From Bdellovibrionales bacterium (GTDB lineage: Bacteria; Bdellovibrionota; Bdellovibrionia; Bdellovibrionales; JAUICD01): a DNA stretch of 64,000 bases. The notes under the pieces were generated by a model. It was not told where the DNA came from and ran no database searches. It saw only the letters and a list, made by a program, of their open reading frames with translations. The DNA is taken from the NCBI GenBank assembly GCA_965197425.1, contig CBDANC010000015.1, positions 10,704 to 74,703 on the forward strand. The letters are read 5' to 3'. The translations under genes were made by a program, and so were the position numbers. This document shows, in pieces, positions 3,466 to 5,777 of this stretch; the first letter of the stretch is position 1; each line of letters opens with the position of its first letter.

Positions 3466-4413
3466 ATGAACAGCATCATTGTAAAAGCAAAAATACTAGA
3501 GGCTTATAGATCTGCACTTTATGTAGTCATATCAAGTATTATATTGAGCTTATTTTTTTCTATAGCTTTTGCACAGACAGGGCCTGTTGGTACGGCTCTA
3601 TCGGGCCCTGCTAGTGCAAAAAGTGGAATTAACCCAGAGCTTATGCTGTCTAACCCAGCATCCCTGTCTGCGGCAAAAAATGTTTATCTAGGTACTATAA
3701 CAACATTTGGAAATAGCGGTAGGCTTGAACTTACTCGCAATATATCTTTGCGGAATACTTATAGTGTATATGTGGTAGATAGAGGAAGTGATTTGTTGCT
3801 TCCGCTTTCGCTTTTTTATACTCGTAGTTACTTGGATATACGAAGCCCAATGGCACAAAGTGATATGAGCAGCGTCTATGTTGCAACTGTGTTTGATATC
3901 ACCCCAACGCTGTCTTTGGGTGCAGGGTATTATAGGAGCAATCTTGGAGATAGTAACAGTAATTACTTAAAACTTGGGACAATATATGCTTTTTCTGAAA
4001 CCGTAAGTTTTGGAGCATCCTATCACCAAGACATATTTAACAATAACACAAGTGACAACGCAATCTCTCTAGGCGCGAGGGTGCTTTTGCTAAACAAGAT
4101 AAATGTGTTTTTAGATCTTACTCGTAGAAGTTGGACGTACACTATAAGAAGTAATGATGGTGTGGCTAATAGAAATAGCATGATTAGTTTGGCATTAGAA
4201 AATAAAATTTCTGATTTTATAATACGGCTCGGAGTGAACACACCTTTTTCAAAAGATATTAAAGACGCGCATTTTTCTTGTGGACTTGGATTTGAAGGAC
4301 CTAAAATTGGTGTAGATTATGGACTGGGATACTATAGGCCCGTAACAAACAACACAACTTATGAATCTATACGTGAGTTTACACATAGCTTTGACTTAAA
4401 CATTTATTTTTGA
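3466..4413 (+). CDS. Putative outer-membrane beta-barrel protein (signal peptide ending AFAQ, alternating beta-strand pattern, C-terminal ...LNIYF)
   Basis: 315-aa ORF with an N-terminal hydrophobic leader, Gly/Tyr/Ser-rich amphipathic strands and a terminal aromatic residue. No family assignment is possible by eye. Confidence 0.5.
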   Translation: MNSIIVKAKILEAYRSALYVVISSIILSLFFSIAFAQTGPVGTALSGPASAKSGINPELMLSNPASLSAAKNVYLGTITTFGNSGRLELTRNISLRNTYSVYVVDRGSDLLLPLSLFYTRSYLDIRSPMAQSDMSSVYVATVFDITPTLSLGAGYYRSNLGDSNSNYLKLGTIYAFSETVSFGASYHQDIFNNNTSDNAISLGARVLLLNKINVFLDLTRRSWTYTIRSNDGVANRNSMISLALENKISDFIIRLGVNTPFSKDIKDAHFSCGLGFEGPKIGVDYGLGYYRPVTNNTTYESIREFTHSFDLNIYF

Positions 4414-4615
4414 GAAACTACAGCGCATGGCATCTCCAACAAAACAGACAAGACTTAGAAGAAAGATGAAGAAAGCTAAGGCAGGTGCTGAAAGAAAGAA
4501 GAAAAATAAAAACCAAGGCACTACTAAAAGTGCTAAAGTACTCTTCAAAGACTAATGCTTCCCTCCATCACATAAAAATGCAAGGATGCTATTTGAAGGT
4601 GAGAGATAGTAGGGG

Positions 4616-5170
4616 TTGTCTTTTAAGGAAGTTGAAAATGGGACACTTAAACTTAGAGCAAATAACAGAGACTTAAAGTTGATAACAGGGTTTGGTTCTA
4701 AACACTTTTTGGTACTTGTTCTCTCATCAGCTTTTTTGATTTCTTGTGAAACCACACAAAAATCCGCAGACTCAACTAGAGATTCCTTGCCTTCTAGAGG
4801 AATTTCCAGCGTTAATTCCTTCGTAGATAGCAGAGGACACTCTCCCTTGCACGAAGCAACCAGAAGTGGTGATGTAAGATTAATTACTAGCTTAGTGCAA
4901 TCAGGAGGAGATATAAACATTGGAGATGCAATGGATGAAACTCCATTACATCTGGCGGCCAGAACAGGTCAAACAGCAGCGGTTAGAACTTTGGTGCGGT
5001 TGGGCGCTACGGTAAGCACAAAAGACAGGAAAGGACATACCCCTTTGCATGAAGTAGCTAGAAATGGTGATTCAGAAGCTGTTCGTTTTTTGGTAGGAGC
5101 TGGTGCAAATATAAATGAAATAGAGAAAACGAAACTGCACTTCACTTATCAGCTAAAAACAACCAACTAG
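4616..5170 (+). CDS. Ankyrin-repeat lipoprotein, 3' end truncated by a frameshift; true start probably the TTG at 4679
   Basis: Leader KHFLVLVLSSAFLISC (lipobox-like LISC). It is followed by three ankyrin repeats (GHSPLHEATRSGDVRLITSLVQSGGDIN, DETPLHLAARTGQTAAVRTLVRLGATVS, GHTPLHEVARNGDSEAVRFLVGAGANIN). Confidence 0.65.
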   Translation: MSFKEVENGTLKLRANNRDLKLITGFGSKHFLVLVLSSAFLISCETTQKSADSTRDSLPSRGISSVNSFVDSRGHSPLHEATRSGDVRLITSLVQSGGDINIGDAMDETPLHLAARTGQTAAVRTLVRLGATVSTKDRKGHTPLHEVARNGDSEAVRFLVGAGANINEIEKTKLHFTYQLKTTN

Positions 5171-5310: not shown

Positions 5311-5345
5311 CTCGCCCACTTTAGAAGTCGGGCGGGATTCTTTAC
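5311..5345 (+). terminator. Possible intrinsic terminator between the convergent ankyrin and histone-fold genes
   Basis: GC stem CTCGCCC (5311-5317) / GGGCGGG (5330-5336) with one G-U pair and a 12-nt loop, followed by ATTCTTT. The large loop and short T tract keep confidence low. Confidence 0.35.
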
Positions 5346-5551
5346 AGATGATCTACAAAGATGTCTTTATCCATAACAGTTTTTCGTTTTTGAGCTTTAG
5401 CGTTGTCCACACCTCTTTTGCAAAGTGCTTCTACAGCTTTTGAAATCTGCGTAATTGCTGAGCTAGAAGTACTAAGCCCATAATTTTCCTTTATGTGTTT
5501 TTTCACCTTGCTGGTTACAATCAGTACACTTGCTAATAAAACTTCCGGCAT
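5342..5551 (-). CDS. Bacterial histone-fold (DUF1931-type) nucleoid protein, Bdellovibrio Bd0055/HBb-like
   Basis: 69-aa ORF preceded by the strong SD AAGGAGG 6 nt upstream. The sequence VLIVTSKVKKHIKENYGLSTSSSAITQISKAVEALCKRGVDNAKAQKRKTVMDKDIFVDHL matches my recollection of the Bd0055 histone (..VTSKVKKLIKEKG..LSKAIEQLCLKGVESAKADGRKTVMARDIVIDHL). Confidence 0.7.
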   Translation of the reverse strand: MPEVLLASVLIVTSKVKKHIKENYGLSTSSSAITQISKAVEALCKRGVDNAKAQKRKTVMDKDIFVDHL

Positions 5552-5777
5552 TTAAACCTCCTTTCTACTTGCTTTTTATGAAAGGTTTTTAGGTATTTAT
5601 CAATAATTTAAACATAAATTTTTAAATAATCCCATAGTCAAATAAGAGGGATATATCAGTTAACATATTAAAAATACTAGATTAATTCAAATATTTGCAC
5701 ATCTACAAAGCTTGTCAATAAATAGTGATATTTTTTCATACATCAACCTTGGGTGAGGTTATGGGAATGCACTTTTG

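Follow-up and report, generated by a model that had tools for sequence, protein, structure and literature searches.

Interest in bacterial histones is recent and lively, yet just two have been characterised, HBb (Bd0055), a DNA-packaging protein of Bdellovibrio bacteriovorus HD100, and HLp of Leptospira perolatii. Histones with a truncated α3 helix have been divided into groups that include the "bacterial dimers" (HBb), the face-to-face tetramers (HLp) and others (PMC11390915, PMC12701072). The group of the bacterial dimers was defined by sequence clustering (PMC11390915), and the face-to-face, HLp-type tetramer interface involves the residues R49, N53 and R55 (PMC12701072). The binding mode of HBb in vitro is disputed, a sheath of dimers having been proposed in one case (PMC10627809) and bending of the DNA in the other (PMC11317129).

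Within the 64-kb stretch of bacterial DNA analysed here, referred to as the window, a gene encodes a protein of 69 residues that an earlier note had read as a histone-fold protein similar to Bd0055/HBb. Sequence, predicted fold and conserved functional residues have borne out this reading, and the protein is very probably an HBb orthologue, a DNA-binding nucleoid histone of the "bacterial dimer" type from an uncultured, AT-rich lineage of Bdellovibrionota. Including the window copy, five orthologues were found, all of exactly 69 residues and 80-96% identical (the others being P0001/L015, P0002/L013, L014 and P0003/L016), which are referred to below as the 69-residue clade.

The 69-residue protein and its relation to Bd0055

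5342..5551, minus strand: coding sequence of the HBb/Bd0055-type histone, 69 codons plus a TAA stop (5344..5342), assigned from the open reading frame, homology and an AlphaFold2 model

A phmmer search of 177,635 PDB sequences gave E=1.2e-17 (8cmp) and E=1.4e-17 (8fvx), both depositions of the B. bacteriovorus histone, with residues 6-69 aligned without gaps to residues 1-64 of Bd0055. BLASTP against Bd0055, a check that the earlier note had proposed, returned 37/64 identities and 49/64 positives, again without gaps, which amounts to 58% identity over 64/64 Bd0055 residues and places the protein with the "bacterial dimer" group by full-length similarity. Judged by its sequence, the protein is a genuine Bd0055/HBb relative, with a similarity far above chance. 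Among the segments that had been quoted as shared with Bd0055, VTSKVKKxIKE and SKAxExLCxxGVxxAKAxxRKTVMxxDIxxDHL are essentially right, but the pieces given as LSKA and KGV really read ISKA and RGV; moreover, the N-terminal extension relative to Bd0055, previously put at seven residues, amounts to only five (M1 of Bd0055 is matched by L6). A profile search with the 69-residue clade collected 863 representative clusters (50% identity) at E<=1e-3 and 370 at E<=1e-10; the matches inspected share the same fold-length architecture, and many among the 863 clusters are doublets. The family is already known, and the window gene adds to it a divergent but clear HBb orthologue and no new protein type.

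The AlphaFold2 model, built from a six-sequence alignment, has a mean pLDDT of 89.4 and helices at residues 3-24, 30-53 and 61-63. When compared with the PDB through Foldseek, its top five matches were all Bd0055/HBb (8fvx, 9ezz, 9f0e and 8cmp among them), with target-normalised TM scores of 0.78-0.81 and rmsd values of 1.6-2.2 Å (TM 0.81 and rmsd 1.8 Å for 8fvx), and below them came further histone folds, among them MHF, Leptospira HLp, HTkC and eukaryotic core histones. In the model, α2 would be about one turn shorter than in HMfB and α3 would be reduced to a single turn, as in the bacterial dimers.

Residue roles described for HBb (PMC11317129, PMC10627809) can be transferred to the window histone with a numbering offset of +5. 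Ten of the 13 DNA-contact or clamp residues are identical (T8, S9, K10, K12, K16, S24, R51, K52, T53 and D58 in HBb), and the remaining three are changed (N22 to S, R57 to K and D49 to Q), D49 being an auxiliary salt bridge of HBb (PMC11317129, PMC10627809). The dimer-core positions V11, L31, I35, L38 and I59 (HBb numbering) are still hydrophobic. Throughout the 69-residue clade, the RD clamp and RKTxxxD motif (R56-K57-T58-V-M-D-K-D63) is invariant, as are the S-K motif and lysines of α1 (S14, K15, K17 and K21, corresponding to HBb S9, K10, K12 and K16). On the side of the tetramer residues, A53 (A48 in Bd0055) takes the place of the archaeal tetramerisation histidine, and N50 and Q54 those of the face-to-face residues R49 and N53. 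The retention of the RD clamp, the RKT loop, the T-S-K cap and the helix-1 lysines, together with the absence of the tetramer residues, therefore assigns the protein to the HBb-type "bacterial dimer" histones.

By homology with HBb, two chains would associate through their antiparallel α2 helices into a histone-fold homodimer, which would bind DNA across the minor groove without sequence preference. The DNA would be contacted by the paired L1-L2 loops, through S27/S29 and R56-K57-T58 held by the R56-D63 clamp, and further by the first turn of α1 and its lysines (T13-S14-K15, K17 and K21). As the residues for archaeal-type or HLp-type tetramers are missing, the protein should act as a dimer, which may bend DNA locally or, at high occupancy, coat it. 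The reading frame, its Shine-Dalgarno sequence, the homology, the predicted fold, the conserved residues, the purifying selection and the synteny are shown here, whereas homodimerisation, DNA binding, abundance and the choice between bending and coating are properties that we infer for the window histone; it would probably be an abundant nucleoid protein, expressed from its own promoter and with a very strong ribosome-binding site.

N-terminus, charge and histone type

5516..5548, minus strand: codons 2-12 (PEVLLASVLIV), a doubled hydrophobic N-terminal segment that alignments place in the 69-residue clade only

The usual N-terminus of the family consists of one acidic or polar residue and a four-residue hydrophobic run, followed by a T/A-S-K cap ([DE]VLVV-TSK), and this run has four residues in 115/139 SKxK motifs of the top family representatives. 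Two tandem hydrophobic units (E-V-L-L-A / S-V-L-I-V) occur, among the top 150 family representatives, only in the 69-residue clade, and they account for its five extra residues. Orthologues differ in codons 2-12 by 2-9 synonymous and 0-3 non-synonymous changes, and these codons are translated and constrained. The two units may conceivably stem from a tandem duplication of 15 nt; by a count made by eye, the codons of EVLLA and SVLIV share 6/15 bases, and synonymous sites are near saturation. Codon 6 is TTA, so that there is no alternative start within the N-terminus.

Other family members with unusual N-termini were also noticed. Five singlets of 85-97 residues (P0139, P0142, P0146, P0148 and P0149) carry an internal M[AS][ED]VLVVTSK after non-conserved sequence, and are most likely gene calls started too far upstream instead of histones with real tails. 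A protein of 206 residues (P0219) has a Cys-rich N-terminal domain and may match the known ZZ-histone architecture.

The 69-residue clade also departs from the Bd0055 group in its charge. Three acidic residues of that group, E26, D29 and D49, are replaced by S, T and Q, and the balance of K+R minus D+E is about +5 in the window histone versus +2 in Bd0055 (pI 9.6 versus 8.9). This loss could weaken the contacts between basic ridge and acidic underside that have been proposed for the filament and, together with the doubled N-terminus, could alter the higher-order behaviour of the protein relative to Bd0055.

These features lend themselves to another reading, namely an HBb-family histone with a different higher-order assembly, for example stronger tail-swapped filaments or oligomers mediated by the N-terminus. 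In the crystal of Bd0055 with DNA, the N-terminal tails are swapped between the dimers of the nucleohistone filament (PMC10627809), and in the clade the doubled unit, unique among the top 150 representatives, is under purifying selection and accompanied by the loss of acidic residues that are conserved in the Bd0055 group. AlphaFold2 extends α1 back to residue 3, with a mean pLDDT of 78 for residues 1-10; however, the model is monomeric, so that intermolecular contacts are not visible in it, and Bd0055 deprived of its AEVL segment keeps both its in vitro DNA binding and its absence of wrapping (PMC10627809). On balance, a changed assembly of this kind seems very unlikely. In any case, two of the features by which the disputed Bd0055 nucleohistone filament is proposed to be stabilised are affected by the natural doubling of the N-terminus and the reduced acidity, so that the clade offers an inexpensive natural variant on which the models of bending and coating could be tested.

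A second reading, that of a face-to-face histone of the HLp/HTkC type, would imply a stable tetramer wrapping about 60 bp of DNA. Both types belong to the same α3-truncated superfamily, HLp is a weak sequence match (E=3e-3) and a structural match (TM 0.75) of the window histone, and Q54 stands at the position of HLp N53. Nevertheless, R49, which defines the signature of this type (PMC12701072), is replaced by N50, and the aligned residues (N50, Q54 and R56) retain only the arginine of the RD clamp, on which grounds the type was rejected. Moreover, the window histone continues beyond α3 with an HBb-type C-terminal tail (D-I-x-[VI]-D-H-L) that HLp lacks, and its identity is 58% to HBb versus about 36% to HLp. 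A bootstrap-free neighbour-joining tree puts the 69-residue clade beside the Bd0055 "IDHL" group, and apart from both it places the "DKDI/DRDF" sequences of Spirochaete, Oligoflexales and Bacteriovoracaceae origin. A face-to-face tetramer is thus highly improbable, and the HBb-type dimer remains the preferred assignment. The archaeal nucleosomal type was likewise rejected, since NCBIfam NF043032 (archaea_histone) gives 18.7 bits where its cutoff is 50, α3 has one turn instead of three, and A53 stands at the position of H49.

Neither PF00808 nor PF00125 reaches its gathering threshold with the 69-residue clade. With Pfam PF00808 (CBFD_NFYB_HMF) the window histone scores 16.2 bits, below the gathering threshold of 21.4, whereas Bd0055 passes at 23.7; it is also below the gathering threshold of PF00125, and the precomputed Pfam annotation is empty for all five relatives P0001-P0005. 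The earlier note had regarded Bd0055 as a DUF1931 protein, which proved mistaken: Bd0055 scores 18.7 bits with PF09123, below the cutoff of 21.8, and membership was rejected for the window histone too, which has no match to this model at E<=1. A published survey of histones used Pfam gathering cut-offs (PMC10627809, Methods) and could therefore miss the 69-residue clade, and surveys that rely on such cut-offs probably undercount the histones of Bdellovibrionota.

The gene, its lineage and its neighbours

5557..5563, minus strand: Shine-Dalgarno sequence AAGGAGG, with a 5-nt spacer to the histone ATG
5603..5598 (-35-like) and 5580..5575 (-10-like), minus strand: candidate promoter of the histone gene itself, TTGATA-17 nt-CATAAA
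5291..5334, minus strand: two adjacent hairpins just 3' of the histone stop, without a U-tract, a possible transcript end

After the upstream in-frame stop, the ATG at 5551..5549 is the earliest codon that could serve as a start, and over 5342..5551 the other strand holds no competing open reading frame of at least 40 residues. The strong Shine-Dalgarno sequence claimed for this gene stands, since a perfect AAGGAGG lies 5 nt 5' of the only possible start codon and is conserved in the orthologues, the stretch AAGGAGGTT being unchanged in 4/4 upstream regions fetched (window, L013, L014 and L015). Only 3/11 AAGGAGG heptamers of the 64-kb window are correctly placed before the start codon of an open reading frame of at least 40 residues, which puts the ribosome-binding site of the histone among the strongest in the window. 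A gap of 226 nt separates murA from the histone gene and holds the candidate promoter. All four orthologous upstream regions share its -35-like TTGAT without change, and CAT[AT][AT]A at a spacing of 17 nt is present in the window, L013 and L014 and absent from L015. A consensus promoter scan passed over this site and chose a different, non-conserved one at 5718..5690; the counts of promoter-like sites in that scan were no higher than in shuffles. Downstream of the gene, the pair of hairpins has a predicted RNA fold of -17.4 kcal/mol (z = -3.5 versus shuffles), and the sequence of the second one was found again 3' of the L013 orthologue. They are a possible transcript end common to the histone gene and the convergent ankyrin gene described below. 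A terminator scan found none, and an Rfam search of the window gave no match.

The adjacent MurA points to Bdellovibrionota independently of the histone, as its best named relatives, at ~59-61% identity, are from Bdellovibrionales, Bdellovibrionota, Bdellovibrio sp. qaytius and Pseudobdellovibrio, which makes the organism an uncultured member of this phylum that branches fairly deep. An entry 100% identical to this MurA, like the histone itself, lies on a 461-kb NCBI/ENA contig, and one of its close relatives lies on a contig of 1.6 Mb. The histone had been proposed as the best lineage marker of the window. It does hint at the lineage, but histones of its type are also on record from Spirochaetota, Elusimicrobiota, Planctomycetota, Myxococcota and Chlamydiota (PMC11390915), which keeps it from being an exclusive marker. 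Neither does an extension of the family to AT-rich genomes, offered as a novelty, hold up: the GC content of the window is 34.3%, Bd0055 homologues are present in two Bdellovibrionales MAG loci (L005 and L006) of 34.5% and 35.4% GC, and a homologue had been reported in 67% of Bdellovibrionota genomes (PMC10627809), so that histones of this family in AT-rich genomes are not new. In a scan of genome contigs, no relative was above 64% identity to the window histone, and the 64-residue homologues of Bdellovibrionales (L001-L006) share none of the flanking genes of the window. Within the 64 kb of the window itself there is neither a second histone-fold gene nor, as judged with an HU query sequence, an HU-like one. 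Apart from the undercount and the natural variant, neither the gene nor its occurrence in this phylum is a surprise.

Among the five orthologues, pairwise dN/dS values are 0.04-0.15 and synonymous differences are near saturation; the histone open reading frame is a real gene under purifying selection. The gene order rho-(rpmE)-prfA-prmC-murA-histone is common to the window, L013, L014 and L015, and the GC content of the histone gene (36.7%) matches that of its neighbours. Although precomputed Pfam is empty for orthologues and relatives, the protein goes without a name in the sources and bacterial histones have a patchy distribution (PMC10627809), the idea of a spurious or decaying frame, a recent horizontal acquisition or an assembly contaminant, devoid of any nucleoid role in the host, has a negligible probability and is effectively refuted by the dN/dS values and by a place downstream of murA shared by four related contigs, one of them of 1.6 Mb, the conserved Shine-Dalgarno sequence and the matching composition also speaking against it.

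That long contig (L014, ena:ERZ25070167:ctg394275_27.16x_c, 1,600,901 bp) carries rho-prfA-prmC-murA-histone in one piece. The "_c" suffix of its name may stand for circular, in which case the genome of this lineage would be small for Bdellovibrionota.

Three genes lie on the other side of the histone gene in the window:

4427..4555, plus strand: ultra-basic open reading frame of 42 residues (MASPTKQTRLRRKMKKAKAGAERKKKNKNQGTTKSAKVLFKD), pI 11.7, 16 K+R, converging with the histone gene
4616..5170, plus strand: ankyrin-repeat protein with a hydrophobic N-terminal segment (Ank_2, E=2e-28)
3466..4413, plus strand: protein of 315 residues with a signal-peptide-like N-terminus and a C-terminal ...NIYF that resembles the end of an outer-membrane beta-barrel

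The 42-residue frame accompanies the histone gene in all five contigs (window, L013, L014, L015 and L016), lying close by and convergent on the other strand, with 83-90% identity in the latter four. Among 5.8 billion proteins its relatives number just four, all within the 69-residue histone clade, and it matches no Pfam or NCBIfam model. The 315-residue protein, which gives only sub-threshold matches to Porin_4 and PorV, is kept beside this pair in L013 (67% identity), L014 and L015. The ankyrin gene sits between the 42-residue frame and the histone gene in the window alone, being absent from that place in L013, L014 and L015; at 40.5% GC it exceeds the mean of the window, and it looks like a lineage-specific insertion. 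Its product shows weak NCBIfam matches, far below cutoffs, to ankyrin effectors of the Legionella Dot/Icm system. A more speculative and very unlikely proposal would be that the doubled N-terminal arm and the acidic loss alter how dimers assemble on DNA, possibly with the 42-residue basic protein as part of a lineage-specific chromatin module.

Comparison with described histones

Doublet histones, already described for Peredibacter starrii (PMC13147790), belong to the same domain family, and those of P. starrii (ACJVC5_12015) and of the locus L007 are top-scoring representatives for the profile. Doublets are two fused folds of about 130 residues (PMC13147790), whereas the window histone is a singlet. 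In L007 (2954..3373 of the Bacteriovoracaceae MAG contig CAXGOD010000157.1), two Bd0055-like folds are found in one open frame of ~140 residues, and doublets of 126-149 residues make up the top-scoring family representatives P0126-P0135.

The archaeal histones HMfB and HTkA share with the window histone the histone fold, the RKT(V) L2 loop and the RD clamp. Unlike them, the window histone has shorter α2 and α3 helices and lacks both the sprocket arginine and H49; hypernucleosomes are therefore not expected of it. HLp of L. perolatii (PDB 9qt0-2) is a face-to-face tetramer with the same truncated fold, the RD clamp and the S-K-V-K motif of α1; it differs, however, in its identity of about 36%, in R49 (here N50) and in ending right after α3 (PMC12701072).

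The closest system is HBb/Bd0055 itself (8fvx, 8cmp, 9ezz and 9f0e), with which the window histone shares the short α2, the one-turn α3 and the extended DHL tail, as well as the RD clamp, the RKT loop, the T-S-K cap, the α1 lysines and the lack of a tetramerisation histidine. In contrast, HBb begins with AEVLVV and the window histone, five residues longer, with EVLLA-SVLIV; HBb is less basic (pI 8.9 versus 9.6), and PF00808 is passed by Bd0055 only. The window gene also lies in a neighbourhood unlike that of the 64-residue homologues of Bdellovibrionales (L001-L006).
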